This document shows positions 9,975 through 61,446 of a DNA stretch of 64,000 nucleotides, in pieces (position 1 is the first letter of the stretch; each line of letters opens with the position of its first letter). Below the pieces are notes generated by a model. That model worked only from the letters and a program-made list of their open reading frames with translations, searched no databases and was not told the origin of the DNA. The position numbers were made by a program, and so were the translations under genes. The DNA is from Candidatus Brennerbacteria bacterium (lineage in GTDB: Bacteria; Patescibacteriota; Minisyncoccia; UBA6257; GWB1-50-10). Location of the stretch: assembly GCA_016183535.1 (NCBI GenBank), contig JACPEK010000004.1, forward strand, positions 141,807 through 205,806, in the 5' to 3' direction.

Positions 9975-10097
9975 CTCGTTTCCGTAACTGGTTTCCCGAT
10001 AGCGCAAATCGGACAACCAAAATCCCCGGCTTCGGCCGGGGTTTTGGTTCGCGGATTTATGCAGATAACCGCGGATAGATATTGATGCCGTGGTACA

Positions 10098-12230: not shown

Positions 12231-12247
12231 CGTTCTAAGGAATTTTT

Positions 12248-17060: not shown

Positions 17061-18128
17061 TTGAACGCTATGAAGAAAAAAAAGACCATTCTTATCACCG
17101 GGGCTGCTGGCTTCATCGGGAGCAATGCCCTTGATTATCTTTTTGGGAAGTACCCCCACTATCGGTTCATCGTGCTTGATGCGCTCACCTATTCCGCAGA
17201 CGTAAAAAATATTCCCGACTACATAAAACAGAGCAATCGATTCGTCTTTTGGTATGGCGACGTGAAGAATGCGAAGATTGTGGACCATCTTGTCAGCCAA
17301 GTGGATGTGGTAGTGCACTTCGCCGCCGAGACCCACGTGACCCGCTCCATTTTTGACGATTCCGCCTTTTTTGAAACCGACGTAATCGGCACGCAACGGG
17401 TTGCGAACGCGGTCTTGAAGCATCGTGCGCGCGTGAAGCGTTTTATACATATTTCCACGAGTGAGGTGTATGGCACGGCCGAGACGCGAAAAATGAGCGA
17501 AACGCACCCACTGAATCCCCAGAGTCCTTATGCGGCCGCAAAAACAGGCGCCGATCGTCTCGTGTATTCCTACCTTATGACGTATAAGATTCCCGCGACT
17601 ATCATCCGCCCCTTCAATATGTATGGACCACGTCAGCACCTTGAAAAACTCATTCCGCGCTTCATCACGAGTTTTATTTTGAATGAGCCTCTCACTATTC
17701 ACGGCACAGGGGACAGCAGCCGCGATTTTACCTACGTGGATGACCTGGTTCGCGCGATTGATCTCGTAATTCATGCTCCAGGAAAAAAGGTAGAGGGAGA
17801 GGTGTTTAATGTGGGTTCGGAGAAAAGCTATTCCGTAAATGCGATTGCAAAGCTTATTACCCGCATGATGGACCACCAAACAGAGAAAAAGACGAAGCAT
17901 ACGACCTATGCGTTGAATGTGGGAGATCGGCCGGGACAGGTATTTAGGCATACTGCGGACACATCAAAAATACGGCGGGTGCTCGGCTGGAAACCGCTTA
18001 TCTCATTCGAAGAGGGGCTCGAGCGTACCGTTGAGTGGTACGTAAAAAATGGAGAGTGGTGGCGCGATAAGGTTTGGATGCGGCACGTTCCGATAGAAAC
18101 GGAGGGGGGCAAAAGAGAGCTTCACTAA
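17061..18128 (+). CDS. NDP-hexose 4,6-dehydratase (RfbB-like extended SDR)
   Basis: Contains ILITGAAGFIGSN...LDALTYSADVKNI and a YAAAKTGAD catalytic Tyr-x3-Lys motif. This matches the dTDP-glucose 4,6-dehydratase pattern (GxxGxxG, LTYAGN-like, YxxxK). Confidence 0.8.
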   Translation: MNAMKKKKTILITGAAGFIGSNALDYLFGKYPHYRFIVLDALTYSADVKNIPDYIKQSNRFVFWYGDVKNAKIVDHLVSQVDVVVHFAAETHVTRSIFDDSAFFETDVIGTQRVANAVLKHRARVKRFIHISTSEVYGTAETRKMSETHPLNPQSPYAAAKTGADRLVYSYLMTYKIPATIIRPFNMYGPRQHLEKLIPRFITSFILNEPLTIHGTGDSSRDFTYVDDLVRAIDLVIHAPGKKVEGEVFNVGSEKSYSVNAIAKLITRMMDHQTEKKTKHTTYALNVGDRPGQVFRHTADTSKIRRVLGWKPLISFEEGLERTVEWYVKNGEWWRDKVWMRHVPIETEGGKRELH

Positions 18129-18140
18129 AAATCTGCGAGG

Positions 18141-19397
18141 ATGAGGAAAAAACAGTTTCGAGCTGGCAAAGATTGGATATGGTACGCGCCGAATACTACC
18201 GATGTGTTCGGAGAGAAAGAAATACGCGCGGTAGAGAAAACGCTTCGTGCGGGGTGGCTTACGACTGGGAAAGTGACCGCCGAATTCGAACGAAAGATCG
18301 CGAAACTGTTCGGCAAGAAATACGGGCTTTTTGTGAACTCCGGTTCTTCTGCGAACCTTCTCGCGTTCGCGGCAAGTAAATTTTCGAAAGGGAGCGAAGT
18401 CATCACGCCCGCCTGCACGTTCAACACCACCATTGCGCCCATCGTCCAAATGGGTCTAGTGCCGGTACTGGTGGATGTGGTGGCGGGAAAGTACACCCTT
18501 AACACGCGCGAACTTGAAAAGGCCCGCTCACGGAAAACCGTTGCGGTCATGGTACCCCACCTTATCGGAAACTTTGTGGATATGGTCGCCGTTCGTGCAT
18601 TCTGTAGAAAACATGAATTGGTTTTCATTGAGGATAGTTGTGATACGATCGGGGGTCTTTATCACGGGAAGCCGTCTGGAATGTGGAGTGATATTGTGAC
18701 TACCAGCTTCTATGCGTCCCATTTGGTGACTGCGGGAGGAGCCGGCGGCATGCTTATGACGAACGACAAGAAACTTCGTGAGCGGGCGAGAGTGATACGC
18801 GACTGGGGGAGAGGTATTTCGCGGCACGACGAAAAGATACGTTCCCGCCTTGCGACATTCCGTATTGACGGGAAACCCTACGACAGCGCATTCGTGTTCG
18901 TGGAGCGCGGATACAACTTCCGGCCGACCGAGATGCAGGCAGCATTCGCGCTGGAACAACTAAAACGTCTTTCTGGTTTTGCCGCGGCACGAAGGAGAAA
19001 CTTCAAAGTACTCCATTCGTTCTTCCGTCGTTACGAAGAGTTCTTCATTCTTCCCGAAGAACTTCCGAAAACGCGTACGAATTGGCTCGCATTTCCACTC
19101 ACCTTAAGAGAAGGAGCGCCGTTCAAGCGAAACGACCTCGTGCGCTATCTTGAGGACCACAAGATCCAGACGCGGCCGCTTTTTTCCGGCAATGTACTGA
19201 AGCAACCGGCGTATCGCGGTGTTTCTCATCGCGTGATAGGAAAGCTTCCGCATTCGAACCTCATTCTCCGGAACTCGTTCCTCATCGGTGTTCACCACGG
19301 TATTACTCAAGAGATGCTCGACTATCTTTTCCGGGCGTTTGAAGCGTTTGTTGTAAAATACGACACCATATTAAGAGGCGCGAAGCTTGCTCCTTAG
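18141..19397 (+). CDS. DegT/DnrJ/EryC1-fold sugar 3-dehydratase-like enzyme (ColD / E1(DdhC)-like; His replaces the PLP lysine; no Fe-S cysteine motif)
   Basis: Contains WYAPNTTDVFGEKEIRAV...VNSGSSANLLAF...SFYASHLVTAGGAGG (His where aminotransferases have Lys). The region after RDWGR lacks the CxC...C cluster of E1. The C-terminus reads IQTRPLFSGN. Confidence 0.75.
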   Translation: MRKKQFRAGKDWIWYAPNTTDVFGEKEIRAVEKTLRAGWLTTGKVTAEFERKIAKLFGKKYGLFVNSGSSANLLAFAASKFSKGSEVITPACTFNTTIAPIVQMGLVPVLVDVVAGKYTLNTRELEKARSRKTVAVMVPHLIGNFVDMVAVRAFCRKHELVFIEDSCDTIGGLYHGKPSGMWSDIVTTSFYASHLVTAGGAGGMLMTNDKKLRERARVIRDWGRGISRHDEKIRSRLATFRIDGKPYDSAFVFVERGYNFRPTEMQAAFALEQLKRLSGFAAARRRNFKVLHSFFRRYEEFFILPEELPKTRTNWLAFPLTLREGAPFKRNDLVRYLEDHKIQTRPLFSGNVLKQPAYRGVSHRVIGKLPHSNLILRNSFLIGVHHGITQEMLDYLFRAFEAFVVKYDTILRGAKLAP

Positions 19398-19922
19398 CGT
19401 TTTGAGTAGTGTCTTGTGTTCTTCAATTACATCTTTTGGTAACTCAGTAAGAAGGAAAAACACTCCGGTTTTGGAATCTTTAATTCCCCTCTTTTTCCGG
19501 CTCAAAAAAATAAGAGAGACTTCCTGTCCTCGCGGCGTTTCTTTTTCTTCAAGCGCGAAGAATCGAGGTTTTGTGAGTGAAAATTTCACCTCTTGCTTCT
19601 GAATTCTTAGAAGTGCGTCTCTAATCTTTTCGCCGGGGCGAAGCACGCTCCCCGGAATATGCCATCCCTTCCAGTATCTGTCGTTTCGATAAGTGAGAAG
19701 CGCCTCCATTTTTTTTCCTGAACCTTTTGTTACAACGAGTTCTATGGGGTTCACGGTGAATGTTTTGCACCACGCGTCAAAAAGAGCAGGCGAAACAGGG
19801 AAACGAACTTTTCGGAGCAAGCCTATCAATACGCGTTCTTCGCGGAAACTTAACAATGAGTTTTGTTTGTGGTTTTGCATTTTGGGAAATTGTAACACGG
19901 ATTCCTCTTTCCGGCGTGCCAT
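19371..19922 (-). CDS. Hypothetical basic protein (183 aa) encoded antisense to the operon, in an AT-richer gap
   Basis: It fills the 567-bp gap between two + strand genes. It is the only minus-strand ORF in 30 kb. No recognisable motif. Confidence 0.35.
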   Translation of the reverse strand: MARRKEESVLQFPKMQNHKQNSLLSFREERVLIGLLRKVRFPVSPALFDAWCKTFTVNPIELVVTKGSGKKMEALLTYRNDRYWKGWHIPGSVLRPGEKIRDALLRIQKQEVKFSLTKPRFFALEEKETPRGQEVSLIFLSRKKRGIKDSKTGVFFLLTELPKDVIEEHKTLLKTLRSKLRAS

Positions 19923-19963: not shown

Positions 19964-20911
19964 ATGAATAAAGTAAAATATTTGATCACGGGAGGAACGG
20001 GTTTTGTGGGAGCGAATTTCATTCGAACGTTCGTTGCGCGCGGGGATGAGGTGTATGTCACGGTACGGTCCCACTCAAACCCATGGCGCCTTTCCGATAT
20101 CAAAGATCGTGTTCATTTCTGTGAGGTAAATCTTGAAGAAGAGGCGGAAGTGGCCCGCGTAGTAAGGTTGGTCGCTCCCGAGGTTATCCTCCATTTTGCA
20201 ACGTACGGAGGATCCCAAGGGCGCGAGCAGGATGTTCGAACGACCATAGCGATGAATGTGCTCGGCACCATTAACCTTATGCGCGCTTCGGTGGAAACGG
20301 GGTTCTCGTGTTTCATAAACACCGGCACCTCCTCCGAATATGGCGAGAAGGACCATCCTATGTGTGAGAACGAGCTTCCCGAACCTAATAACCTCTACGG
20401 CGTCACGAAAGCCGCCGCAACCATGTTCGGGCGTTTTTTAGGTAGGAAGCACAACCTTTCTCTCGTTACCATGCGTCTCTTCTCGGTGTATGGATACTAC
20501 GAAGATCCTAGACGGTTGGTGCCGGTGGTGATAAAGGCGTGTTTGAAGAACGGCGAGCTCGCTCTTGCGTCCTCCTCTTTCGTGCGCGATTTTGTCTTTA
20601 TCGAAGACGTGATCGGAGCATATGATGCCGCGATAGCCCACCGTGAAGATATCAAGGGCGAGGTGTTCAACGTGGGTACCGGAATGCAGCGCACACTTGG
20701 CGATGTGGTGACGATCGTGAAACGCGTCACTGGTGCGACTATCGAGCCGTCGTACGGAGCCGCTACGCCCGTTCAGCACGAACCCGCGATGTGGACCGCA
20801 AACGTCTCGAAGATCAAGCGGATGCTCGGCTGGGAACCGGAATATTCGTTGGAGGATGGGATAGCGAAGAATGTGGAATGGTTCAAACAGAATCCTTCGC
20901 TGTATCAATGA
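19964..20911 (+). CDS. NAD-dependent epimerase/dehydratase (extended SDR)
   Basis: Contains YLITGGTGFVGANFI and YGVTKAAATMF (YxxxK). The ATG at 19964 is preferred, since the upstream extension overlaps the antisense ORF. Confidence 0.85.
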   Translation: MNKVKYLITGGTGFVGANFIRTFVARGDEVYVTVRSHSNPWRLSDIKDRVHFCEVNLEEEAEVARVVRLVAPEVILHFATYGGSQGREQDVRTTIAMNVLGTINLMRASVETGFSCFINTGTSSEYGEKDHPMCENELPEPNNLYGVTKAAATMFGRFLGRKHNLSLVTMRLFSVYGYYEDPRRLVPVVIKACLKNGELALASSSFVRDFVFIEDVIGAYDAAIAHREDIKGEVFNVGTGMQRTLGDVVTIVKRVTGATIEPSYGAATPVQHEPAMWTANVSKIKRMLGWEPEYSLEDGIAKNVEWFKQNPSLYQ

Positions 20912-21738
20912 AAGTTTCGCACTCTCCAACTACCCACCAACTGCAAAGTGTCGCGCGTACCGTGCGGCAGTTGGTTTTGGATATGGTGACGCAGAGCAAA
21001 AGCGCTCACCTCGGGAGCAGTTTCTCTGTAGTGGATATCCTCGTCGCACTCTATTTCAATGCGATGAGGGTCTTCCTGAAAAATCCGAAGCATCCAAATC
21101 GGGATCGTCTTCTTTTGAGTAAGGGCCATGCGGGTGCCGCTCTCTATGCTGTGCTGGGTGTGCGAGAGTTTTTCAATGTGAAACTGCTCAAAAAATATCT
21201 TCGGAACGGAACCGCACTTGCGGGACACGCGAGTCAAGCCGCGGTTCCCGGCGTTGAACTTTTTACCGGCTCATTGGGTCATGGTCTTCCGATTGGGACG
21301 GGGATGGCGTTCGCGGGGAAACTCGATAAGAAATCATACCGGGTGTTCGTGGTGATGAGTGACGGAGAATGTGACGAAGGGTCCAACTGGGAAGCCATCC
21401 TTTTCGCGGGGCACCATCAACTGGATAATCTTGTGGCGGTGGTGGATTACAACAAGTGGCAGTCGTTCGGGCGGACTAAGGACATTCTGGACCTCGAACC
21501 GTTCGCGAAGAAATGGAGGGATTTCGGTTGGAATGTAAAAGAGTGCAATGGGCACGATTTTAAGGCGCTCACGAAGGCATTCGCCAAAATCCCGTTCGCA
21601 AAAGGAAAGCCAAGCGTGCTCATCGCCCATACCGTGAAAGGGAGGGGACTTCCCTACGAAAACGAGCTTCGCTCGCACTATAATTCTCCCACCGAGGAAG
21701 AATATCGGTTGGCGAAAGAGCGCATCAAGCATCTATGA
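20908..21738 (+). CDS. Transketolase, N-terminal (ThDP pyrophosphate-binding) subunit, pair 1
   Basis: Contains SKGHAGAALYAV and GSLGHGLPIGTGMA, plus the ThDP/Mg motif VMSDGECDEGSNWEA. The start overlaps the upstream stop (ATGA). Confidence 0.9.
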   Translation: MKVSHSPTTHQLQSVARTVRQLVLDMVTQSKSAHLGSSFSVVDILVALYFNAMRVFLKNPKHPNRDRLLLSKGHAGAALYAVLGVREFFNVKLLKKYLRNGTALAGHASQAAVPGVELFTGSLGHGLPIGTGMAFAGKLDKKSYRVFVVMSDGECDEGSNWEAILFAGHHQLDNLVAVVDYNKWQSFGRTKDILDLEPFAKKWRDFGWNVKECNGHDFKALTKAFAKIPFAKGKPSVLIAHTVKGRGLPYENELRSHYNSPTEEEYRLAKERIKHL

Positions 21739-22664
21739 GAATAGCCTTTATGAAGGCGCTCACGCGTCTTGTAAAAAAAGACAAGCGGGTAATGCTTCTC
21801 ACCGGAGACCTTGGATTCTCGGTCTTTGAGGACTTTGCGCGTCAGTTCCCAAAACAATACCTCAACTGTGGGCTCGCCGAGCAGAATATGGTGGGCATGG
21901 CGGCGGGGCTCGCGTTGAGCGGCAAAAAAGTGTTTGCGTACTCCATCGTCCCCTTTGCAACAATGCGACCATTCGAGCAGGTTCGTGACGATGTGTGTCT
22001 CCACAATCTGGACGTAAAAATAGTGGGAGTAGGCGGTGGGTATAGCTATAGTCAGCTCGGCGCGACGCACCACTCCATCGAAGACATCGCCATCATGAAG
22101 GTGCTGCCGAACATGAAAGTGTTGGTTCCTGCCGACCCCATAGAAACGGAGTTGGCGGTGAAAGCGATGGCGCGCGACCGCGGTCCGGCGTATCTTCGTT
22201 TGGGTAAGAGCAAGGAAGAAAATTTGCACCGCAGAACCTTTCCGTTCGCGATCGGACGATCCAATGTTCTGCGGAAAGGAAGCTCTGTGACCGTCATAGG
22301 ATGCGGTCCGATCCTCAAAAATGTGCTGCGGGCGGCGGAGATCCTGGCGAGGAAGAACATATTCTGCAAGGTCATTTCCATGCCGACCGTGAAACCATTG
22401 GACGAACGCGTGGTCATGAGCGCGACGAAGACCGGACTTGTTATCACTGTGGAGGAGCACAGCGTGATTGGCGGACTGGGGGATTCAGTGGCATCTGTGC
22501 TAGCCCAAGCGGCTCTTCCTAAGAAATGTCGACTCAAAAAAATCGGTGTCGAGGACCGGTTTATGAAGATCGTGGGTGACCAGGAATATTTAAGGTCACA
22601 AAATGGCCTTTCTCCGGAACAGATCGCGAGGTCAATAACTTCACTGATTAAAAAAAGAAGTTAG
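21735..22664 (+). CDS. Transketolase, C-terminal (pyrimidine-binding + C-terminal domain) subunit, pair 1
   Basis: Contains LTGDLGFSVF...GLAEQNMVGMAAGLA and EEHSVIGGLGDSV. Confidence 0.9.
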   Translation: MRIAFMKALTRLVKKDKRVMLLTGDLGFSVFEDFARQFPKQYLNCGLAEQNMVGMAAGLALSGKKVFAYSIVPFATMRPFEQVRDDVCLHNLDVKIVGVGGGYSYSQLGATHHSIEDIAIMKVLPNMKVLVPADPIETELAVKAMARDRGPAYLRLGKSKEENLHRRTFPFAIGRSNVLRKGSSVTVIGCGPILKNVLRAAEILARKNIFCKVISMPTVKPLDERVVMSATKTGLVITVEEHSVIGGLGDSVASVLAQAALPKKCRLKKIGVEDRFMKIVGDQEYLRSQNGLSPEQIARSITSLIKKRS

Positions 22665-22670
22665 TCGCGC

Positions 22671-23819
22671 ATGAGCAAGAATAATGGTCCACTGGTAAGC
22701 ATCTGCGTGACTTTTTCGAGCGCAGAAGAATTCATTCATAGGGTTTTTGACAGTTGCCTCAACCAAACCTACCGGAACATCGAAGTGGTGGTGGTTGATA
22801 ATGCGAGCACCGATGGAAGCGAAAGAGTGGTGAGGAAATACGCGGCACAAGACCCGCGTATAAAATATTTCAGGCGCGCACAGATGGCGGGTCTCTCATC
22901 GCGCTTATTGGAGATGTTTCAACAAGCAGGCGGAGAATTTGTGATGATGATAGGGGCAGACGACTGGCTCGCGCGCGATTACATTAAAAACGGCGTACAG
23001 AGCTTCCTCGACCATCCTGGAGTAGCGGGCATCGTACCGCGGCTGATAAATCTTTCAGAGATTGGCGGGAATCAGTTCAAATTTCTCAGCGAGACCTTCG
23101 GTGATTTTTCCCCTCCCCGCGCATACTCTGCAAAATGGTTTGTAAAGCGCATGTACCGATCGGAGCACCTCTACATAAGCGCACTCGCGCTTATGCGAAA
23201 AGAAGATGCGGTGAAAGCGATGGATTATTTTGTGGGGCATTATTGCAATAAACCGCTCGTGGGTGTTCCGTCCGAGCTCAAAGGTTTTTGGGAGAACGGA
23301 TTTGGTGTTGACGCAATACTATTTTTGGAGGTTTTGACGAGGTACCACAATTTCGTTTTTGACAGTTCACTACGCTATTTAAAAGTGGCGCACGGCAAAA
23401 ATCTTCGTTTTGATCTCGGTAGCGATTCTCTGGCGGAGATATTCAAGAACGCCTACTATTACCTTCTCACGTTTAAAGGGATGTACGCGCCGTTGTGGAA
23501 TGATTTTTATCGCGAGATGAAGATATTTTGGGGTGCCGAAACGATCGTGTCAGCCGGTATCTATCTTTTCAGGTTTGGTATGCGTTCACGGGACGTGGGG
23601 GGCTATAGAACCACAACGTTCCGACGCGCATTTTTCGGAGAACTGTCACTTTTTGAAACGGTAGCGGCGGGCGGAAGGGCGATGATAAGGCTGTCCCCGC
23701 GAGGCACCCGTTTCATAATACGGAAGCTTTTGGGAACGCGGGGACAGAAAAATACAGAGCGCATAGCGTTCAAACCGGAGAATTTTTTGGACCAAGAGGG
23801 GCGTTTTAAGGTGAGTTGA
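22671..23819 (+). CDS. Glycosyltransferase family 2
   Basis: N-terminus reads VSICVTFSSAEE...EVVVVDNASTDGS (GT-A, DxD region). Confidence 0.75.
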   Translation: MSKNNGPLVSICVTFSSAEEFIHRVFDSCLNQTYRNIEVVVVDNASTDGSERVVRKYAAQDPRIKYFRRAQMAGLSSRLLEMFQQAGGEFVMMIGADDWLARDYIKNGVQSFLDHPGVAGIVPRLINLSEIGGNQFKFLSETFGDFSPPRAYSAKWFVKRMYRSEHLYISALALMRKEDAVKAMDYFVGHYCNKPLVGVPSELKGFWENGFGVDAILFLEVLTRYHNFVFDSSLRYLKVAHGKNLRFDLGSDSLAEIFKNAYYYLLTFKGMYAPLWNDFYREMKIFWGAETIVSAGIYLFRFGMRSRDVGGYRTTTFRRAFFGELSLFETVAAGGRAMIRLSPRGTRFIIRKLLGTRGQKNTERIAFKPENFLDQEGRFKVS

Positions 23820-23825
23820 TTACTT

Positions 23826-24764
23826 ATGAAAGAACACCATATTTTCAGTCCTGATGATTTTTCCTCGGCCATAGGTGAGCCCTTAAGCGAGCGGGTGAAG
23901 AGTAAGATAGAGGAGTTGAATATCGAGTATGCACGGATGACACCGCAGGAGAGGGATGAATGCATTAAAACCAGCGTGAAGATACTACTGGACCCGGAAT
24001 TCGACGCGTCCGGAGCGCACCGGTTGGGCAAGTGGGAAAAGGGATGGTCAGAAAACCTGCAGGCATTCCGAGAGAGGGGGAAGGGGGGCCTTGTGCCGGG
24101 CTACTTTTCTGCCACCCGCGATTTGGTCAAGTGGGGAAAGTGGAAGCAAGAGTATATCCGCCCCCTTCAGGGAAACCTCGACTATAAGTTTCTCTCCATA
24201 ATTTTGGAGTGGCTTTTTGAGAAATATATTCCTGCCGCGAGCTCCGTGTACGAGTTTGGGTGCGGCACGGGCCACCACCTTCTGAAGGTGCGGGAATTCA
24301 ACCCGGAAGCAAAGATCTACGGCTTGGATTGGGCCGAAGCGTCCCAGGAGATTATCAAAGAAATGGTTGCAAAAGATGTAGCCAAGAATACCTACGGAAA
24401 GAAATTTGATTTTTTTAATCCCGACGAATCGTTCGCGCTCGACGCCAACAGTGTGGTGTATACCGTAGGCGCTTTAGAGCAGGTTGGAGAAAAACATGAG
24501 AAGTTCATCGCGTATTTGCTCAAGAACAGGCCTAAAATATGTTTCCATGTGGAGCCGATTGGGGAACTGTTGGACGATTCAAATCGCACGGATTTTCTTA
24601 CCCAATCGTACTACCGGAAGAGAAACTATCTCTCGAATTTTGTGAACCACCTCAAGGCGCTGGAGAAAGAGGGGAAAATAAAGATTGAAAAAGCACAAAG
24701 GACCTATTTGGGAGGGAGCTTGCTCACGGAGTATGCGGTGGTCATGTGGAGTCCGGTGGCATAG
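23826..24764 (+). CDS. Class I SAM-dependent methyltransferase
   Basis: Motif I reads VYEFGCGTGHHLL, followed by GLDWAE. Confidence 0.7.
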   Translation: MKEHHIFSPDDFSSAIGEPLSERVKSKIEELNIEYARMTPQERDECIKTSVKILLDPEFDASGAHRLGKWEKGWSENLQAFRERGKGGLVPGYFSATRDLVKWGKWKQEYIRPLQGNLDYKFLSIILEWLFEKYIPAASSVYEFGCGTGHHLLKVREFNPEAKIYGLDWAEASQEIIKEMVAKDVAKNTYGKKFDFFNPDESFALDANSVVYTVGALEQVGEKHEKFIAYLLKNRPKICFHVEPIGELLDDSNRTDFLTQSYYRKRNYLSNFVNHLKALEKEGKIKIEKAQRTYLGGSLLTEYAVVMWSPVA

Positions 24765-24766
24765 CT

Positions 24767-25735
24767 ATGAATTACCGGACATTAGGCGCTACTGGCATTT
24801 CGGTTTCCGAGATAGGTTTTGGCACGTGGGGAATCGGCGGGCTCACCGAGGGCGCCACCTCGTACGGCGAGACCGACGACGCGGTGTCGCTTCGCGCGCT
24901 CGCGCGGGCCCTCGAACTCGGCATGAATTTTTACGACACCTCGAACATCTACGGCCACGAGGGGCACGCGGAGGCACTTCTTGGGGAGGCATTTGGTAAC
25001 CAACGCGAAAGAGTTGTGCTTGCGACAAAAGTCGGATGTGTAAAGCACGGAGGGCCATACGACGTGTCACCGTCCTATATCCGTAGCTGCCTCGAAGCAA
25101 GCCTGCGCCGCCTCAAAACTGACTACGTCGACGTGTACCAACTTCATAGCGTGCCGCTTGAACTTGTGCGGGAGACCCCCGAATGTTTTGCAACATTGAG
25201 AGAGCTAAAGAAGGAAGGAAAGATCCGCGCGATCGGATATTCGGTGAAAAACCCCTCCGATGCCAAGACGGCGATAGAAGAATTCGGCGTGGATGTAGTG
25301 CAACTAAACTTCAACATGATGGACCAGCGCGCGCTTACCGAAGGAATCTTTGATGTGGCCCGTGTGCGCGGCGTTGGCATCATCGTACGGACACCCTTCG
25401 CCTTCGGATTCCTTACCGGAAAAGTCACCGACACTCAGTTCGATTCTCGGGACCATCGTTCCGTGTGGTCGCCGGCACAACTCGCGCGATGGAGGGAGTC
25501 CCCGAACGTTTTTTCCCCGGTGAACGATAAGGGCATCTATACTCCCGCGCAGTTCGCGCTGAAGTTCTGCGTCGCGTTTCCGGAGGTGTCCACGGTGGTC
25601 GCGGGCATGCTCACGGAAACCCAGGCGGAGGAGAACGCGACGGCGAGCGATCTCCCTCCGCTCACCGCCGCACAGCTCGCGGCGATCCGAAAGATCAGAG
25701 AGGTGAACACGTTTTTCGTAAGCGAAAAGAAATAA
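24767..25735 (+). CDS. Aldo/keto reductase family oxidoreductase
   Basis: Contains YRTLGATGISVSEIGFGTW, NFYDTSNIYG and IRAIGYS (AKR catalytic tetrad context). Confidence 0.85.
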   Translation: MNYRTLGATGISVSEIGFGTWGIGGLTEGATSYGETDDAVSLRALARALELGMNFYDTSNIYGHEGHAEALLGEAFGNQRERVVLATKVGCVKHGGPYDVSPSYIRSCLEASLRRLKTDYVDVYQLHSVPLELVRETPECFATLRELKKEGKIRAIGYSVKNPSDAKTAIEEFGVDVVQLNFNMMDQRALTEGIFDVARVRGVGIIVRTPFAFGFLTGKVTDTQFDSRDHRSVWSPAQLARWRESPNVFSPVNDKGIYTPAQFALKFCVAFPEVSTVVAGMLTETQAEENATASDLPPLTAAQLAAIRKIREVNTFFVSEKK

Positions 25736-25825
25736 CCCGCGTAGCCGTCAGTGATTGTCAAGGCAAGAATATTGGTATATAACCAAGGCAAAAGACATTA
25801 CACAATCATAAAGAGACCTCATTCT

Positions 25826-26347
25826 ATGGAAGCACATAAAACGACACTGGACGGCGTATTGCTCATACGGCCCGACTCTCCCATCCACGAGGATTTTCGA
25901 GGCAGGTACGTGACCGCGTACCGCAAAGCCGAGTTCGAAAAGATGGGCATTAACGTGGAGTTTGTGAACGAAAGCTACTCCACCTCTTCAAAGGGGGTGC
26001 TTCGCGGCATCCATGCAGAGACGGATAATTGGAAGCTCATCTCCTGCAGGCGCGGGTGCTTCTACTTGGTGGTGGTCGTGTGCGACGAGCAGTCGAAAGA
26101 TTTCGGAAAATGGGAGTCATTCACGCTCACCGAGCATAATGCGCTCCAAGTGCTCATACCTCCGGGATTCGGGAACGCCCATCTCGCCTTGAGCGACGAC
26201 ATTATGTTTCACTACTTGCAATCCAACTATTTCGATCCCGCCCGTCAGACCACGTACCGCTACGATGACCCGAGGTTCGCCATCTGGTGGCCGATAAAAA
26301 ATCCACTTCTTTCTCCGCGCGATGAAGCGGGGAAGTATGTGGAATGA
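25826..26347 (+). CDS. NDP-4-keto-6-deoxy-sugar 3,5-epimerase (RfbC-like cupin)
   Basis: Contains DFRGRY, SKGVLRGIHAE, LISCRRGCFYLVVV and IPPGFGNAHLALSDD, matching the RfbC signature pattern. Confidence 0.85.
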   Translation: MEAHKTTLDGVLLIRPDSPIHEDFRGRYVTAYRKAEFEKMGINVEFVNESYSTSSKGVLRGIHAETDNWKLISCRRGCFYLVVVVCDEQSKDFGKWESFTLTEHNALQVLIPPGFGNAHLALSDDIMFHYLQSNYFDPARQTTYRYDDPRFAIWWPIKNPLLSPRDEAGKYVE

Positions 26348-26466
26348 TCGACCTCATAGCTCTCGCGCCCCGCATATCAATGCGGGGCGTTTTTTATGCT
26401 CTTGCCAAAATCCCATCGGTGGTATATAACCAAGTCAGAAAACTTTTATAACCAAAGGAGACATTA

Positions 26467-27261
26467 ATGGAGAACTTAGCGGCAATAGCGAAGCAGTGCC
26501 GGCAGAAGGTTCTGGAAATGGCATATGCCGCGAAGGATTCGCACATCGGATGTGCGCTATCTTCCGTGGACGTGTTGGTCCTGCTTTTCTTTCGTGTGAT
26601 GAACGTAAATCCCGAAGACCCGCGTTTTTCCGAAAGGGATCGGTTCATTTTGAGCAAGGGGCACGCGGCAGCGGCACTCTATGCGGTCATGTCCGCGCGC
26701 GGATTTTTCCCCCGGGAAGCGCTCGCAACCTTCGCACAGAACGGAAGTGAACTCGCGAGCCATGTGGAACGGAAGCTTCCTGGCGTGGAGACCAATGGCG
26801 GCTCCGGCGGGCACGGACTTTCGATTGGTGCCGGTATGGCGCTTGCCGCACAGGCGGACGGCGCGAACTATCGCATCTTCATTCTCATGGGAGACGGGGA
26901 ATTGCAGGAAGGGTCTGTGTGGGAAGCGGCAATGTTCGCCTCATCGCGCAACCTTAGCAACCTCACCCTTATCGTGGACCGGAACGGGTTCCAAACGTGG
27001 AACAAGGTGGACGATATCGTCGCCGTAGAATCCCTTGTGGAGAAATTCAGGGCGTTCGGGTGGGATGCGGACGAGGTTAACGGTCACGATTTCGAACGGC
27101 TCGGCAGCGTCATCGAACGAACGGGCGACCGTCCACATGCCATCATTGCACGCACCGTGAAAGGGAAAGGTGTTTCTTTCATGGAAGGTGATGGCGTCTG
27201 GCACTCCAAATCGATGTCGGACGAACACTATCATCGTGCTATGAAGGAGGTGCAATCATGA
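26467..27261 (+). CDS. Transketolase, N-terminal subunit, pair 2 (paralog of 20908-21738)
   Basis: Contains SKGHAAAALYAV, GSGGHGLSIGAGMA and ILMGDGELQEGSVWEA. Confidence 0.9.
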   Translation: MENLAAIAKQCRQKVLEMAYAAKDSHIGCALSSVDVLVLLFFRVMNVNPEDPRFSERDRFILSKGHAAAALYAVMSARGFFPREALATFAQNGSELASHVERKLPGVETNGGSGGHGLSIGAGMALAAQADGANYRIFILMGDGELQEGSVWEAAMFASSRNLSNLTLIVDRNGFQTWNKVDDIVAVESLVEKFRAFGWDADEVNGHDFERLGSVIERTGDRPHAIIARTVKGKGVSFMEGDGVWHSKSMSDEHYHRAMKEVQS

Positions 27262-28166
27262 GAACCGCTTTCGTGGAAACACTCTATGAAGAGGCTCTTC
27301 GTGACCCACGTATCTTCTTCATCACCAGCGATTTTTGGCATGTGAAGGAGGAGGAATTCCGGGCTCTCGGAGCGCGATACCAGAATGGCGGCATGGCCGA
27401 ACAAAACATTATCAGCCTTGCAGTTGGCGCCGCACTCTCAGGGAAGAAGGTTTTTGTGTATTCCATCGTTCCTTTCATCACGCTCCGTTGCATCGAGCAG
27501 GTAAAAGTGGACGTGTGTTCACACGAAGCCGATGTCACCATCGTTGGTGGCGGAGCCGGTTTCACGTACGGAACATGCGGCATAACCCACCTTGCGATCG
27601 AGGACATTGCAATGATGCGCTCACTTCCCCACATGAGAATAATCTCACCTTCAGGATCGGCGGAAGCAAGCGCCCTCTTACGAGAGACCATTCGACTTGG
27701 GGGGCCGACTTACTTTCGCCTCAATATGAGGGAAGATGGTGATCTCACGAGCATGAAGCCCGAAGTAGGAAAGGGAATGATTGTTCGGGAAGGCGTGGAC
27801 GTATGCATCATCGCTACTGGGACCATTCTCGCGGAAGCATTCGGCGTTGCGGACATGCTCGCGGAGAAGGGGATTTCCGTTGAAGTGGTCAACATGCACA
27901 CGATCAAACCTCTCGATGAGGGCCTTGTTCGGGAGCGTGTGCGGTCCCGTCGCGCTGTTTGTACTCTTGAAGAGCACAGCATCATCGGAGGACTTGGTGG
28001 TGCGGTAGCGGAGGTGTTCGCGGAGTCCGGCGGTACGGCCCGATTCAGGCGTTTCGGCATCAAGGATGCATGGCCGACCGTAGTGGGGAGCCAGAAATAT
28101 CTGCGCACCGTGACCGGTATTTCCCAGGAATACCTTGCGGTCGCGATAGAGAAGCTCCTTCAGTAG
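27258..28166 (+). CDS. Transketolase, C-terminal subunit, pair 2
   Basis: Contains GGMAEQNIISLAVGAA and EEHSIIGGLGGAV. Confidence 0.9.
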   Translation: MRTAFVETLYEEALRDPRIFFITSDFWHVKEEEFRALGARYQNGGMAEQNIISLAVGAALSGKKVFVYSIVPFITLRCIEQVKVDVCSHEADVTIVGGGAGFTYGTCGITHLAIEDIAMMRSLPHMRIISPSGSAEASALLRETIRLGGPTYFRLNMREDGDLTSMKPEVGKGMIVREGVDVCIIATGTILAEAFGVADMLAEKGISVEVVNMHTIKPLDEGLVRERVRSRRAVCTLEEHSIIGGLGGAVAEVFAESGGTARFRRFGIKDAWPTVVGSQKYLRTVTGISQEYLAVAIEKLLQ

Positions 28167-28299: not shown

Positions 28300-29124
28300 A
28301 TGACCATGAAAAACGCAGCGGAAAAGGACCTCGCCGGTCGCGTCGCGCTCATCACGGGAGGCAGTAAGGGCATTGGGAAGACGATAGCCCTGACCCTCGC
28401 GCGGCGAGGCGCCGACATCGTTATCTGCGGCCGAGGCGCATCTGCTCTGGAAACGGCGGCGGAAGAGATACGCGCGTGCGGTTCGACCGTGCATGCCCAC
28501 CCACTTGACGCTACAAAGCTCGAGGGAGTGCGGGATTTTTTTCGCAAGGTTATCGAACCCATTGGACGCCTTGATATTCTCGTGAACAATATCGGGGGAG
28601 TGCGAGAAGTCGCGAAATTTCCCGATCTCACCGATGATGACTGGTACGGAATCTTCGATACCAATCTCATGACCATGGTGCGTGTCACGCGGGAAGCGCT
28701 CAGTTACCTCACAAAATCTCCGTATGCCCGCATCATCAACATTGCGAGCGTGGCAGGGAAACAGCCCGGCGACTGGAACCCTCACTACGGCGCGGTAAAA
28801 GCGGCGATGATCCACCTCTCTAAATCGCTTTCGCGCACCTTGGGACCGGAACACGTGCGGGTAAACGCGATTTGCTCCAGCACCATTAAGGGCGAAGGCG
28901 CGTGGAAGCGGGACGTTGAGAGTAGGATGCGGAGTGGGAACGTCTCGTTTGAGGAAGCGGAGCGCGTACTGGAAGCGGAAGTAAGAGCAAAAGCGCCGCT
29001 CGGAGAGATAGGTACTCCTGCGGATGTCGCGGAACTCGTTGCATTTCTTGCATCGAATCAAGCTTGCTTCATCACCGGCACCTGCATCGAGGTTGATGGT
29101 GGGACGGTTCGATCCATCTTTTAG
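28300..29124 (+). CDS. Short-chain dehydrogenase/reductase (classical SDR, 3-oxoacyl-ACP reductase-like)
   Basis: Contains ALITGGSKGIGK (TGxxxGxG), NNIG and YGAVKAA (YxxxK). Confidence 0.85.
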   Translation: MTMKNAAEKDLAGRVALITGGSKGIGKTIALTLARRGADIVICGRGASALETAAEEIRACGSTVHAHPLDATKLEGVRDFFRKVIEPIGRLDILVNNIGGVREVAKFPDLTDDDWYGIFDTNLMTMVRVTREALSYLTKSPYARIINIASVAGKQPGDWNPHYGAVKAAMIHLSKSLSRTLGPEHVRVNAICSSTIKGEGAWKRDVESRMRSGNVSFEEAERVLEAEVRAKAPLGEIGTPADVAELVAFLASNQACFITGTCIEVDGGTVRSIF

Positions 29125-29267: not shown

Positions 29268-31259
29268 ATGAGAACCACAGAGCTTGTGGTAGGGCTGGTG
29301 CAGATCAACAACGGCTACACCGGCCAGTATTATCTCCCGTACTCGGTGGCGATGCTCGAAGCATATGCGAGGAAGAATCTTTCCCGACCGGATCGGTATC
29401 GTTTTCTCGTCCCTATTTATCGCAGGGAGCCGGTCGCGGATGCGGTGGCGAAGTTGCTCGGTGCGGATATCGTAGGGTTCAGCATCTATGTGTGGAACGA
29501 GCAGCTAAGCCTTGCGATCGCGCGAGAACTGAAAAGGCAAAAGCCCGAAGTGCTCGTGGTGTTCGGAGGTCCCCAGGTTCCGGATAACCCGGAGCGTTTC
29601 ATGGAAGAGAACCCCTTCATTGATATCGCGTGTCATGGCGAAGGCGAGAGGGTATTTTGCGCTCTTCTTGAACGATGGGAAGATAAAGAACATATCCCCG
29701 CCATCAGTTATCGGTACAACGGACAGCTCGTGCGGAACCCGCGTTTACCGCGCGTGGAGAACCTAAACGAATTTCCATCCCCATATTTGGACGGGGTTCT
29801 TGATCCTCTCATGCGCGAGAATCCCAACGGGAAATGGAACGCCATTTGGGAAACAAACCGTGGATGCCCCTTCAGTTGCACGTTTTGCGACTGGGGTTCC
29901 GCGGTCAATGCCACGAAGGTGAGGAAATGGGAAGAGGAACGGCTTTTCCGCGAGATAGATTGGTTCGCGGAGCATAAGGTCGATTTCATCTTCGGCGCCG
30001 ATGCCAATTTCGGCATCTTCGAACGTGATATTGGTATCGCAGAGCGTCTTGCGGATTCAAGGCGAAGAACCGGTTTTCCCCGTGCATTCAGCGTTTCAAG
30101 CACCAAGAATGCCACGGAAAGGTCCTTTGCGGCACAGAAAATACTTTCTGACGCCGGATTGAATACTGGTGTAACCGTTTCCATGCAATCCATGGACGTG
30201 GGAACGCTCGTGGCGATCAAGCGGGACAACATTCAGTTGGAGGGCCCAAAGGGTTTCAAGGAACTTCAGCGGAAATTCACGCTTGCAGGAATCCAAACCT
30301 CAACTGATCTCGTCCTGGGATTGCCGGGAGAGACGTACGAATCGTTCGTGCGCGGCGTGAGCGATCTTATCGCGAACGGCCAGCATAATCGCATTCTATT
30401 CTTCAACCTGACCGTCCTTCCGAACGCCGAAATGGGCGATCCGGAATACCAGAAGAAGTACGGGATGGAAACGGTGGAAACGCGCATCATCACGATCCAT
30501 GGCAATCTTCACGATAAGGAAGACGAGGTCGCGGAGTTACAACAGCTGGTGGTCGCGACGAGTACGATGCCGCGAGAGGATTGGGTGCGAGTACGTGCAC
30601 TTTCCTGGATGACTGCGTTTCTGCACTTCGACAAGGTGCTCCAGATTCCGCTTGTGGTCATACATGAGATGACCGGCATTGATTACCGGACGCTCATCGA
30701 GCTATTCTCGGAAGGCTGTTTTGGAAGCGAAGAAGAATTTCCAACCCTTTCCAAGATTCGGAAATTCTTCATTAAGAAGGCCGAGGAGATCCAGGGTGGA
30801 GCGGAGGAGTTCTGTCGTGCGCCCCAGTGGCTTGATCTGTGGTGGCCGACCGATGAGTATATGCTCATCGAACTGGCGACCAGCGGCAATCGCCTCGCGT
30901 TCTATGAGGAAGCCGAACGGGCACTCTCAGTATTTTTGATGGAGAGAGGGATGGGAAGCTGTTGCGGGGTATTGCGCGAAGCGGTCTATCTGAACGAAAG
31001 GATGTTCAAGATGCCGTTTCAGAACGAAAATCGTCGCGTGGAGCTCTCCCATAATCTATGGGAATTCTATTACACTGCGATCTGTGGCAAGCCCATTCCA
31101 TTGGAAGAGAGGGAAACGGTCGTTACCGTTGACTGCACCACCGAACGGTGGGATTCATGGGATGGCTGGTGCCGGTTCGCGGTGTGGTATGCGAGCCATC
31201 CCGGCGCATTCTTCTTTGGTATTACCCCCGACAAGAAGCAGATTGCGGGGCATTGGTAG
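29268..31259 (+). CDS. Cobalamin (B12)-binding-domain radical SAM enzyme (class B rSAM), 663 aa
   Basis: N-terminal B12-binding-like domain with VVFGGPQV. Radical SAM cluster motif CPFSCTFCDW (CxxxCxxC). Long C-terminal extension. Confidence 0.85.
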   Translation: MRTTELVVGLVQINNGYTGQYYLPYSVAMLEAYARKNLSRPDRYRFLVPIYRREPVADAVAKLLGADIVGFSIYVWNEQLSLAIARELKRQKPEVLVVFGGPQVPDNPERFMEENPFIDIACHGEGERVFCALLERWEDKEHIPAISYRYNGQLVRNPRLPRVENLNEFPSPYLDGVLDPLMRENPNGKWNAIWETNRGCPFSCTFCDWGSAVNATKVRKWEEERLFREIDWFAEHKVDFIFGADANFGIFERDIGIAERLADSRRRTGFPRAFSVSSTKNATERSFAAQKILSDAGLNTGVTVSMQSMDVGTLVAIKRDNIQLEGPKGFKELQRKFTLAGIQTSTDLVLGLPGETYESFVRGVSDLIANGQHNRILFFNLTVLPNAEMGDPEYQKKYGMETVETRIITIHGNLHDKEDEVAELQQLVVATSTMPREDWVRVRALSWMTAFLHFDKVLQIPLVVIHEMTGIDYRTLIELFSEGCFGSEEEFPTLSKIRKFFIKKAEEIQGGAEEFCRAPQWLDLWWPTDEYMLIELATSGNRLAFYEEAERALSVFLMERGMGSCCGVLREAVYLNERMFKMPFQNENRRVELSHNLWEFYYTAICGKPIPLEERETVVTVDCTTERWDSWDGWCRFAVWYASHPGAFFFGITPDKKQIAGHW

Positions 31260-34451: not shown

Positions 34452-34453
34452 CA

Positions 34454-44083: not shown

Positions 44084-44148
44084 CGAGGTTCGGTTATTTG
44101 GTAATTTTGTTTCAATATATCAAACCCGTCAATATTTAGCAAAACCGA

Positions 44149-46008: not shown

Positions 46009-46012
46009 GGAT

Positions 46013-47488: not shown

Positions 47489-47491
47489 GCG

Positions 47492-61381: not shown

Positions 61382-61446
61382 CACAGTGGTAGTGCAACTC
61401 CCTGTTAAGGAGTGGGTCGTAGGTTCGAATCCTACCCGGGGAGCCA
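61372..61446 (+). tRNA. tRNA-Asn (anticodon GUU), CCA encoded
   Basis: Sequence is TCCCCGGTAGCACAGTGGTAGTGCAACTCCCTGTTAAGGAGTGGGTCGTAGGTTCGAATCCTACCCGGGGAGCCA. Paired 7-bp acceptor stem. Anticodon loop CTGTTAA. T-loop TTCGAAT. Confidence 0.85.

Follow-up and report, generated by a model that had tools for sequence, protein, structure and literature searches.

Two split transketolase pairs in a surface-glycan cluster of a Candidatus Brennerbacteria genome, candidate enzymes for C2 branching of nucleotide sugars

Enzymes of the YerE and E1 types are known to attach C2 branches to keto sugars in a thiamine diphosphate (ThDP)-dependent reaction, and transketolases (TKs) have been proposed to do so in the biosynthesis of two nucleoside antibiotics. 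In yersiniose A formation in Yersinia pseudotuberculosis, a dehydratase and E1 act before YerE, which adds a C2 unit to the C4 ketone, and the ketoreductase YerF then follows (PMC12247030). Two-component E1-like enzymes (aldgamycin, avilamycin and kibdelomycin KbDH; AlmD/AviB) are heteromeric ThDP enzymes that place a C2 branch on nucleoside diphosphate (NDP)-keto sugars (PMC12247030). TK-type sugar branching is listed only for Streptomyces antibiotic clusters, and the branched sugars of cell surfaces are assigned to YerE-like enzymes (PMC12247030). Here we describe two split TK pairs in a 64-kb window (the whole stretch of DNA analyzed, from the 210,920-bp contig JACPEK010000004.1) of a Candidatus Brennerbacteria metagenome-assembled genome (MAG) belonging to the candidate phyla radiation (CPR)/Patescibacteria. 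Both pairs lie inside a Wzx/Wzy-type glycan cluster, which occupies ∼10.1-48.8 kb of the window.

Split TKs outside central metabolism have also been met in two other settings. AziC5/C6 from azinomycin biosynthesis is a split TK that in vitro extends a non-phosphorylated aldehyde by a C2 unit (PMC9570651). In Fonsibacter (freshwater SAR11), a hypervariable glycan region carries four 'incomplete transketolases', two N-only and two consisting of pyrimidine-binding plus C-terminal domains (bioRxiv 10.1101/672428). These sit among glycosyltransferases, methyltransferases and epimerases, and a separate full-length TK is present elsewhere in the genome (bioRxiv 10.1101/672428).

The best reading of the two Brennerbacteria pairs, judged from sequence and gene context, is that they are heteromeric ThDP enzymes of the TK fold that act in nucleotide-sugar pathways and not in the pentose-phosphate pathway. 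By analogy with YerE/YerF, of which they would be the TK-type counterpart, we consider it on balance probable that they transfer a glycolyl C2 unit to an NDP-4-keto-6-deoxy sugar, with ketoreduction following. We are more confident of this for pair 1 than for pair 2, as the acceptor pathway of pair 2 is less well defined. An earlier sequence-only reading of this DNA had left two options, a dedicated supply of sedoheptulose 7-phosphate (S7P) or C2 transfer to a keto sugar, and had proposed two distinct, non-housekeeping reactions. The comparative evidence below speaks for C2 transfer, for two reactions and for a role apart from housekeeping, and goes against S7P supply.

Pair 1 (TK-N1 and TK-C1, 20908-22664) and pair 2 (TK-N2 and TK-C2, 26467-28166) are encoded by four forward-strand open reading frames (ORFs; Table 1). 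In both pairs, matches to PF00456, PF02779 and PF02780 lie far over the gathering thresholds, with the ThDP diphosphate-binding domain in the N subunit and the pyrimidine-binding and C-terminal domains in the C subunit. The three ThDP motifs quoted in the sequence-only reading occur literally in both N subunits, as SKGHAGAALYAV, GSLGHGLPIGTGMA and DGECDEGSNWEA in TK-N1 and as SKGHAAAALYAV, GSGGHGLSIGAGMA and DGELQEGSVWEA in TK-N2 (exact matches). The two N subunits are identical in sequence to the Brennerbacteria MAG proteins whose accessions are given in Table 1. ATGA overlaps join the genes at three junctions (SDR/TK-N1, TK-N1/TK-C1 and TK-N2/TK-C2, where SDR denotes a short-chain dehydrogenase/reductase), and a ribosome-binding site, AAAGGAGA, precedes TK-N2. 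Between the pairs lie the glycosyltransferase (GT2), methyltransferase, aldo-keto reductase (AKR) and RmlC-like (RfbC-like) genes reported before, all confirmed by Pfam, the methyltransferase similarity being weak.

The divergence of the pairs from each other was likewise borne out, the N subunits being 42% and the C subunits 41% identical. A recent tandem duplication was considered and ruled out by this mutual identity, given that each pair has relatives elsewhere at 60-80%, and it is also countered by related clusters such as locus L011, in which module B (the genes around pair 2) is present and module A (those around pair 1) is absent. NCBIfam and Pfam models label the subunits as transketolase. 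Their Pfam matches fall in the TK, DXS, E1 and XFP families only, that to E1_dh being weak (E 8e-06 and 2e-08), and the TPP_enzyme domains of the YerE family (acetolactate synthase-like, single chain) were found in none of the window TK subunits. Against the NCBIfam TK equivalog NF004559, with a cut-off of 488, summing N and C scores (a rough measure only) gives 450 for pair 1 (N1 250, C1 201) and 408 for pair 2 (N2 261, C2 147), both below.

The C subunits were aligned to the split TK of Carboxydothermus hydrogenoformans (6yaj) and to human TK, and residue numbers are those of the human enzyme unless stated otherwise. Among the three subunits searched against solved structures, the best match was 6yaj for TK-C1 (7.7e-64) and TK-C2 (8.6e-48), and the N chain of 6yak for TK-N1 (7.6e-61). 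In TKs, the active site is found where the N subunit of one protomer meets the C subunit of another. The ThDP/Mg motif reads SDGE in TK-N1 and GDGE in TK-N2, each followed by a conserved Asn, and the Asp and Asn of the GDG...N motif are invariant (238/238 N-subunit homologues). The cofactor-activating Glu of (L/M)AEQN is kept in TK-C1 and TK-C2 and in 149 of 150 representatives. His37, His77, His110 and His258 are all present in both N subunits (in 221-238 of the 238 homologues), and the equivalent of E. coli His473 is kept in both C subunits (150/150 C-subunit representatives). TK engineering has associated the two donor C1-hydroxyl-binding His residues with a hydroxylated C2 donor rather than pyruvate. 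The retention of these residues therefore favors a hydroxylated C2 unit over an acetyl unit derived from pyruvate.

The substrate-facing residues differ from the canonical set. The signature of TK-C1 is R-S-E-G-Q-L-H-K, compared with R-S-E-H-E-D-H-R in canonical TKs, and the window N subunits carry GSLGHG in place of GSLGQG, with His at this position in 236/238 homologues. Arg318 is retained in both C subunits. Ser345 is kept in TK-C1 and is His in TK-C2, His416 is Gly in both, Glu423 is Gln in TK-C1 and Thr in TK-C2, Asp424 is Leu and Cys, and Arg474 is Lys and Met, respectively. The last of these positions varies between Lys and Met within the clade that we call B. We take Arg318, Ser345, His416 and Arg474 to be the substrate-phosphate binders in the yeast and human TK structures, and human Asp424 (yeast Asp477) is presumably the reader of the acceptor aldose C2-hydroxyl. 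Judged by substrate-site residues and by model score, both pairs would fall outside the classical TKs (EC 2.2.1.1). The same remodeling is widespread in the subfamily, of which 2,348 cluster representatives match TK-C1 at E < 1e-30. Among the 150 nearest, taken as representatives of clusters at 50% identity, position 416 is Gly in 139, position 424 is Asp in just 4, and the site is fully canonical in 2.

Mapping of related loci (referred to by L numbers) onto the window genes assigns the two pairs to separate modules. Module A consists of an NDP-hexose 4,6-dehydratase, an RfbH-like 3-dehydratase, an extended SDR (SDR1), TK-N1 and TK-C1. The 4,6-dehydratase is of the dTDP type and not the CDP type (322 bits against TIGR01181, dTDP-glucose 4,6-dehydratase, under the cut-off of 365), and its orthologs, 62-70% identical, adjoin SDR-TK-N-TK-C genes in L003, L038 and L066. 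The RfbH-like protein has E1 as its best solved structure (3bcx, 2.4e-85). It keeps the dehydratase His (SFYASH) in place of the transaminase Lys, but it has no counterpart of the Cys-rich [2Fe-2S] loop of E1, and an E3 reductase is not encoded nearby. Since the iron-sulfur loop is missing, the protein should act like ColD, without an E3 reductase. The sequence thus suggests an enzyme of the E1 lineage with a ColD-like, reductase-independent mechanism, whose expected product is an NDP-4-keto-3,6-dideoxyhexose.

The SDR1 stop codon overlaps the TK-N1 start codon, and an SDR1 ortholog (49-51% identity) lies directly upstream of TK-N in L003, L005 and L007. TK-N1 homologs (54-58%) from Wolfebacteria, Staskawiczbacteria and groundwater CPR all belong to SDR, TK-N, TK-C triads in glycan loci. 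The triad comes after a 70%-identical 4,6-dehydratase in L003, and before a 47%-identical RfbH-like gene in L005 and L007. In two groundwater CPR loci, an HNH/NUMOD3 homing endonuclease-like ORF lies between TK-N and TK-C of the module A pair (L007, 8794-9657; L008, 8800-9657), which places a free-standing mobile endonuclease where the two-subunit enzyme is divided. The window also has a small NUDIX hydrolase-like gene on the reverse strand, and NUDIX genes are found in the related loci L009, L016 and L065.

From these gene identities, residues and syntenies, and from the fusions described below, all of them observed, we infer a donor, an acceptor, a regiochemistry and an order of steps. A dihydroxyethyl-ThDP carbanion would be formed from a ketol donor, for which a ketose phosphate or hydroxypyruvate are candidates. 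Its addition to the C4 carbonyl of an NDP-4-keto-6-deoxy sugar would give a tertiary alcohol bearing a glycolyl (hydroxyacetyl) branch, and a dedicated reductase would turn the branch ketone into a 1,2-dihydroxyethyl group. The putative dedicated reductases are the SDR coupled to pair 1 and the AKR conserved beside pair 2. For pair 1, the acceptor would be the NDP-4-keto-3,6-dideoxyhexose provided by the adjacent 4,6-dehydratase and RfbH-like 3-dehydratase, and the reductase would be the translationally coupled SDR1. Pair 2 would serve a second pathway made up of the GHMP kinase, nucleotidyltransferase, RmlC-like epimerase and SDRs, in which the sugar is probably GDP-linked and possibly a heptose. 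Its branch would be reduced by the AKR and/or the short-chain SDR, and the product may be further decorated by B12 radical S-adenosylmethionine (SAM) and SAM methyltransferases. Makers of NDP-4-keto sugars, a trait of the branching class, are encoded near pair 1, while for pair 2 the link is weaker and runs through the RmlC-like gene and the SDRs.

Module B consists of a GT2 glycosyltransferase, a 312-aa protein, the AKR, the RmlC-like epimerase, TK-N2, TK-C2, a FabG-like short-chain SDR, two KedN5-family B12-binding radical SAM enzymes, a GHMP kinase, an extended SDR, a nucleotidyltransferase and a HAD phosphatase. Most of it recurs at 48-74% identity in L009-L011 (Jorgensenbacteria and two other MAGs), two of whose contigs were recovered by the species-genome scan described below. 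L011 is essentially this cluster minus module A. Because it carries module B alone, the window unites two independent modules. TK-N2 belongs to a tight clade of homologs (60-69% identity) in other CPR genomes, which lie in modules encoding AKR, TK-N, TK-C, SDR and B12 radical SAM proteins, and an AKR is found near the TK pair in L009, L010, L011, L016, L031, L044, L057 and L096. In L009 and L011, orthologs of the RmlC-like protein are 59-74% identical and those of the FabG-like SDR 48-69%. The 312-aa protein, for which no NCBIfam match was found, is conserved together with the TK pair and the RmlC-like gene, at 60-67% in L009 and L011 and at ∼30% in loci of Planctomycetota and Desulfobacterota. 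The two adjacent B12 radical SAM proteins (∼660 aa each) have relatives beside TKs of the pair 2 type in other CPR genomes, and more distant ones in Planctomycetota. This conservation in a glycan cluster implies a putative cobalamin-dependent C-methylation of a surface sugar. Each pair thus has its own conserved partner reductase, in agreement with the proposal of two distinct reactions.

The sequence-only reading placed a heptose module downstream of pair 2. HddA-, HddC- and GmhB-like genes are indeed found there, but all score under the curated cut-offs, and no GmhA/SIS isomerase is encoded in the window, while the related cluster L011 has one. The sugar activated by the products of 33459-36784 may therefore not be a standard heptose. 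The GHMP kinase is 45-54% identical to its counterparts in B-type loci of Desulfobacterota and Planctomycetota, 52% in Azospirillum and 69% in L011. A CDP-alditol (teichoic acid-like) route for module B was suggested by small CTP_transf_like genes in L009-L011 and was set aside, the window being without such a gene.

A scan of one genome per species yielded 80 loci with related TK pairs, from CPR, Gammaproteobacteria, Desulfobacterota, Planctomycetota, Bacteroidota, SAR11 (L077, L086, L091 and L096), Chlamydiia, Rickettsiella, Enterovibrio baiacu and several archaeal phyla. Nucleotide-sugar or glycan neighbors are present in 73/80 loci, an extended SDR of the dehydratase family in 53, a nucleotidyltransferase in 45 and an RfbH-like protein (at least 33% identity) in 30. 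The commonest gene order is nucleotidyltransferase, dehydratase-type SDR, (SDR), TK-N, TK-C, (SDR), RfbH-like, and two TK pairs share a single locus also at L029, L035, L037 and L047. In Enterovibrio baiacu, genes for rfbF (413 bits, cut-off 300), rfbG (501, cut-off 278) and rfbH (733, cut-off 423) are followed by TK-N and TK-C, and the rfbG of L036, L053 and L076 (Woesearchaeota) passes the cut-off as well (442-489 bits). A tblastn search of plasmids found the order rfbF, rfbG, oxidoreductase, rfbH, TK-N, TK-C, GT2, GtrA on pHY1 of Methylovirgula sp. HY1. The rfbF-rfbG-rfbH-TK order of these two bacteria follows the gene logic of yersiniose, with a TK in the place of YerE. No close clade B relatives above 41% identity were found on plasmids.

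Paenibacillus cellulosilyticus (L012) encodes rfbF, rfbG, a methyltransferase, a 635-aa SDR::TK-N fusion, TK-C, a TylF-type O-methyltransferase and a glycosyltransferase. Three further fusions occur among the nearest cluster representatives: a 996-aa protein joining TK-C, TK-N and an RmlD-like SDR, a TK-C::zinc alcohol dehydrogenase, and a TK-C::NDP-sugar C-methyltransferase (PF08484). The loci of two of these, the triple fusion and the fusion to the C-methyltransferase, were checked, and both are glycan loci. Such fusions physically tie the TK step to carbonyl reduction and to NDP-4-keto-sugar chemistry. Together with the nucleotide-sugar and glycan loci of the relatives and their CDP-glucose 4,6-dehydratase and RfbH neighbors, they support the suggestion of C2 transfer to a keto sugar. 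B-type modules are found in Desulfobacterota and Planctomycetota too, and Azospirillum sp. B510 has one whose GHMP kinase and AKR are 52% and 49% identical to those of the window. In L065, the genes that come after the TK pair encode, in order, a Gmd-like 4,6-dehydratase, a NUDIX protein, a B12 radical SAM protein, an RmlC-like protein, a nucleotidyltransferase and a GHMP kinase.

Two of the loci have unusual features. The metagenome contig with the triple fusion (L097) encodes a RuBisCO large subunit-like protein (11929-13122, 397 aa) beside a CmcI-like methyltransferase, an unusual neighbor. On pDCAR1 of Solidesulfovibrio carbinolicus (L013), a TK-C of the same subfamily lies beside the pseudaminic acid genes pseB and pseC, methyltransferases and a radical SAM gene. 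Upstream of it, where TK-N would be expected, no gene is listed and the one frame tried contains stop codons.

Several considerations weigh against C2 transfer to a ketone. The sugar-branching TKs proposed so far remain untested, and no ketone-accepting TK has been characterized (2025 review, PMC12247030). The characterized relative AziC5/C6 takes an aldehyde acceptor, and the C2 donor of pairs 1 and 2 is at candidate level only. To our knowledge, 4-C-glycolyl and 4-C-(1,2-dihydroxyethyl) sugars have not been reported from any bacterial glycan. No clear 4,6-dehydratase lies next to pair 2 in the window, leaving its acceptor pathway poorly defined. The non-canonical site is found in 148/150 nearest representatives whatever their gene context, and His416 and Asp424 are likewise missing from a catabolic split TK of Agrobacterium, which is encoded beside an FGGY kinase and an ABC transporter. 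The non-CPR TK-C proteins of B-type loci retain the Glu-Asp pair. The 80 loci were retrieved by clade B peptide patterns, and hence are no unbiased sample of the subfamily. The active-site signature was tried as a diagnostic of sugar-nucleotide use and rejected on the grounds of the Agrobacterium TK, a Streptomyces parvulus TK and the 148 non-canonical representatives. Occurring as it does in varied contexts, the remodeled signature marks a broad non-pentose-phosphate subfamily, and not by itself the use of sugar nucleotides.

The aldehyde acceptors of all characterized TKs, including the non-pentose-phosphate AziC5/C6 (PMC9570651), raise the alternative that the ketol unit extends a chain: a C2 ketol would be added to an aldehyde (sugar-derived, or small and free or phosphorylated) to give a higher-carbon ketose or sugar, which would then be activated and modified by the kinase, phosphatase, nucleotidyltransferase and reductases. 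TK-C1 shares 43% identity with a likely AziC5/C6 counterpart that S. parvulus encodes in an amino-group carrier protein (AmCP)/DADH-type nonribosomal peptide synthetase (NRPS) cluster. The retained Glu-Asp pair of non-CPR B-type enzymes, an acceptor-hydroxyl reader, points the same way, and the co-occurrence of B-type TKs with the GHMP kinase across phyla, often with a HAD phosphatase and a nucleotidyltransferase, would suit the assembly of a sugar followed by its activation. We nevertheless regard chain extension as unlikely. The steadiest partners of A-type TKs, CDP-glucose 4,6-dehydratase and RfbH, make a C4 ketone, no enzyme generating a sugar aldehyde is evident, the fusion partners are NDP-sugar-type SDRs and an NDP-4-keto-sugar C-methyltransferase, and the RmlC-like epimerase of module B requires an NDP-4-keto sugar. 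Less likely again is that one pair, mainly pair 2, supplies S7P or a related ketose phosphate to the kinase-phosphatase-nucleotidyltransferase module downstream. This would accord with the HddA-, GmhB- and HddC-like genes, with the SIS/GmhA gene of L011 and, as general knowledge, with the reduced metabolism of CPR. However, the phosphate-binding residues are mostly replaced (the equivalents of His416, Arg474 and, in TK-C2, Ser345, in addition to Asp424), and GmhA is missing from the window. The same subfamily serves CDP-hexose pathways, where S7P is not needed, and B-type modules occur in Planctomycetota, Desulfobacterota and Azospirillum, which are expected to have a normal TK of their own. 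In the SAR11 genome, a full-length TK is encoded apart from the four glycan-island genes (bioRxiv 10.1101/672428), and the AKR consistently linked to the TK would be superfluous for making S7P.

That the pairs are ordinary pentose-phosphate TKs which happen to lie in a glycan island is very improbable. The Pfam and NCBIfam calls, the functional split TK of C. hydrogenoformans as the best solved structure, and the intact cofactor and catalytic residues would all be expected of such enzymes, but the substrate-binding residues are replaced and the summed scores fall under the equivalog cut-off. Pair 1 is coupled to an SDR, and the two diverged copies, in an island of low G+C content, resemble accessory genes. 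The tested orthologs of pair 1 (L003, L005, L007) and pair 2 (L009-L011) are all in glycan loci, 73/80 more distant relatives have nucleotide-sugar or glycan neighbors, and a pentose-phosphate context was seen in none of these loci. Gene context, residue substitutions and the lack of GmhA led us to set aside housekeeping and S7P supply alike as the principal explanation. More improbable still is a role in electron supply, in which the TK pair would oxidize a ThDP-bound intermediate and feed the RfbH-type 3-dehydratase in place of an E3 reductase. In favor of this, the TK pair is often flanked by RfbH-like genes in loci that show no E3/AscD-like reductase, and ferricyanide can artificially oxidize TK. 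This idea was rejected since many TK-pair loci lack RfbH (e.g. L003 and L012, with RfbH-like proteins in only 30 of the 80), the window RfbH-like protein has no iron-sulfur cluster to take electrons, and pair 2 is without an RfbH partner.

Returning to C2 transfer onto NDP-4-keto sugars, a broader proposal can be put forward tentatively, at a level of assurance that falls somewhat short of an even balance. A widespread split-TK subfamily, marked by GSLGHG in N and G-x-G-x-x-Y-G-x-x-G-x-T-H in C, may put glycolyl or dihydroxyethyl branches on NDP-4-keto-6-deoxy surface sugars in CPR, SAR11, Planctomycetota, Proteobacteria, Firmicutes and DPANN archaea. Its members would be the first natural ketone-accepting TKs, and the products would be C-branched surface sugars not yet seen. 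The present cluster would make two of them, the first based on a 3,6-dideoxyhexose and the second on a heptose-like scaffold C-methylated by B12 radical SAM enzymes.

As the review limits TK-type branching to Streptomyces antibiotic clusters, the new element is the putative TK-type system in surface-glycan clusters across many phyla, which is not a new category. If the proposal is true, it would add a new reaction type to a textbook enzyme family, useful in the biocatalysis of chiral tertiary alcohols. It would also predict branched sugars on the surfaces of abundant uncultured CPR, SAR11 and DPANN, and explain the 'incomplete transketolases' of the SAR11 hypervariable region. If it is wrong, the 'transketolase' annotation of such genes would still mislead pentose-phosphate reconstruction in reduced genomes. 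Tractable candidates are the rfbF-rfbG-rfbH-TK loci of Enterovibrio baiacu and Methylovirgula, the SDR::TK of Paenibacillus cellulosilyticus and the B-type module of Azospirillum sp. B510, and the predicted acceptors CDP-4-keto-6-deoxyglucose and CDP-4-keto-3,6-dideoxyglucose can be produced enzymatically.

The glycan cluster has a G+C content of ∼51%, compared with 59-60% in the flanks, where housekeeping DNA encodes ClpB, an HtrA-like protease, HisRS, FtsA and FtsZ. This low G+C would fit a surface-glycan island that is hypervariable and exchanged horizontally. No pentose-phosphate genes were found in the 64-kb window. Outside the cluster, a reverse-strand gene (61432-63060) encodes a large serine recombinase with Resolvase, Recombinase and Zn_ribbon_recom domains. 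It lies where the G+C falls to 42-51% (60-64 kb), possibly at the boundary of an integrated element. The G+C content of the window is highest (∼65%) around a 1139-aa ORF (6555-9974) whose sole recognizable domain is peptidoglycan-binding.

Table 1. Features of the glycan cluster, with window positions, strand, and matches to family models (E-values, or bit scores with model cut-offs)
Feature	Position	Strand	Match or remark
Wzy_C-type O-antigen ligase/polymerase-like membrane protein, left end of cluster	10098-11588	+	PF04932, E 3.6e-16
NDP-hexose 4,6-dehydratase (4-keto-6-deoxy sugar maker)	17070-18128	+	PF16363, 1.4e-72
RfbH/E1-like NDP-4-keto-6-deoxyhexose 3-dehydratase	18141-19397	+	NF011936 (RfbH), 395 bits, cut-off 423
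Small NUDIX hydrolase-like gene	19371-19709	-	PF00293, weak
Extended SDR (SDR1), proposed pair 1 reductase	19964-20911	+	PF01370, 6.6e-45
TK-N1, TK-like N subunit 1 (ThDP diphosphate-binding domain)	20908-21738	+	PF00456, E 7.5e-43; MBI2278854.1
TK-C1, TK-like C subunit 1 (pyrimidine-binding and C-terminal domains)	21735-22664	+	PF02779, 1.8e-36; PF02780, 1.2e-24
GT2 glycosyltransferase	22671-23819	+	PF00535, 9.4e-26; orthologs 44-47% in L009, L011
312-aa protein, weak methyltransferase similarity	23826-24764	+	PF13847, 2.6e-06, barely at threshold
AKR, proposed pair 2 reductase	24767-25735	+	PF00248, 2.2e-59
RmlC-like NDP-4-keto-sugar epimerase	25826-26347	+	PF00908, 2e-42; TIGR01221, 125 bits, under cut-off of 156
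TK-N2, TK-like N subunit 2	26467-27261	+	PF00456, 7.5e-38; MBI2278860.1
TK-C2, TK-like C subunit 2	27258-28166	+	PF02779, 5e-22; PF02780, 3.1e-28
Classical short-chain dehydrogenase (FabG-like), conserved downstream of pair 2	28306-29124	+	PF13561, PF00106, ~1e-50
B12-binding radical SAM enzyme, KedN5-family C-methyltransferase	29268-31259	+	PF02310, PF04055; NF033712, 8.4e-75, 252 bits, cut-off 700
Second KedN5-family B12-binding radical SAM enzyme	31394-33382	+	PF04055, PF02310; NF033712, 1e-52
GHMP sugar kinase (HddA-like)	33459-34451	+	PF00288, PF08544; NF049969 (HddA), 142 bits, cut-off 600
Extended SDR (SDR2), NDP-sugar epimerase/dehydratase/reductase family	34454-35506	+	PF01370, 6.3e-44
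Sugar-1-phosphate nucleotidyltransferase	35494-36240	+	PF00483, 2.4e-22; weak similarity to ManC, HddC
HAD-IIIA phosphatase (GmhB-like)	36206-36784	+	NF006506, 150 bits, cut-off 178
Right-end block: GFO/MocA-like, asparagine synthase, Wzx flippase, initiating phosphoglycosyl transferase	42437-48805	-	
Wzx-type flippase	46013-47488	-	PF01943, 1.1e-40
Initiating phosphoglycosyl transferase, right end of cluster	47492-48805	-	PF02397, 1.1e-56

Among structurally characterized enzymes, the split TK of C. hydrogenoformans (6yak/6yaj) has the same subunit boundaries and cofactor motifs as the window pairs. It carries the canonical Ser, His, Glu-Asp, Arg and GSLGQG, whereas the window enzymes have Gly, Gln/Thr, Leu/Cys, Lys/Met and GSLGHG. 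AziC5/AziC6 and the Vzb/Fic TKs of the DADH pathways are likewise non-pentose-phosphate split TKs that place a C2 ketol on a non-phosphorylated acceptor, followed by a DegT-family enzyme, with activity demonstrated in vitro (PMC9570651). They differ in that the acceptor is an amino acid semialdehyde (an aldehyde), possibly bound to a carrier protein, in an NRPS context. The S. parvulus split TK on pSPA1 (L098) is 43% identical to TK-C1 and 48% to TK-N1. Its C subunit keeps the His416 and Arg474 equivalents that are lost in the window proteins and is without the Glu-Asp pair. In that locus (7750-10903), a DegT-like aminotransferase, TK-N and TK-C lie in an NRPS cluster with a RimK-type ligase, ArgB, ArgC and M20, which looks like an AmCP/DADH-type pathway as in azinomycin or vazabitide. 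The four Fonsibacter genes amount to two split pairs, as in the window; the authors of that study gave no mechanism or family analysis.

The E1-like enzymes AlmD/AviB/KbDH differ from the window TKs in belonging to the E1 alpha/beta (PF00676-type) family, in using a pyruvate donor and in serving actinomycete secondary metabolism. The likeness to YerE/YerF lies in the pathway logic and the gene order of the TK loci, in which the genes for a nucleotidyltransferase, a 4,6-dehydratase and an RfbH/E1-type 3-dehydratase come before those for a ThDP enzyme and a reductase. YerE itself is a single-chain member of the decarboxylase (acetolactate synthase-like) superfamily that uses pyruvate and forms an acetyl branch, whereas the window enzymes have two subunits and the TK fold, and their donor-hydroxyl His residues predict a glycolyl branch. 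The window pathway further departs from that of yersiniose in its dTDP-type dehydratase, in place of a CDP-type one, and its RfbH-like enzyme without an Fe-S loop. The term 'transketolase' was not found in a full-text search of the paper on a unifying scheme for acyl-branched sugars. The split-gene TKs of miharamycin and amipurimycin, with 13 putative enzymes from Streptomyces biosynthetic gene clusters, have a proposed branching role on nucleoside-type core sugars in actinomycete antibiotic clusters. We liken the window TKs to them by description and not by sequence. The window pairs and their relatives belong to cell-surface glycan clusters of CPR and many other bacteria and archaea. By analogy of function, the window pairs would most resemble YerE/YerF and the proposed miharamycin and amipurimycin split TKs.

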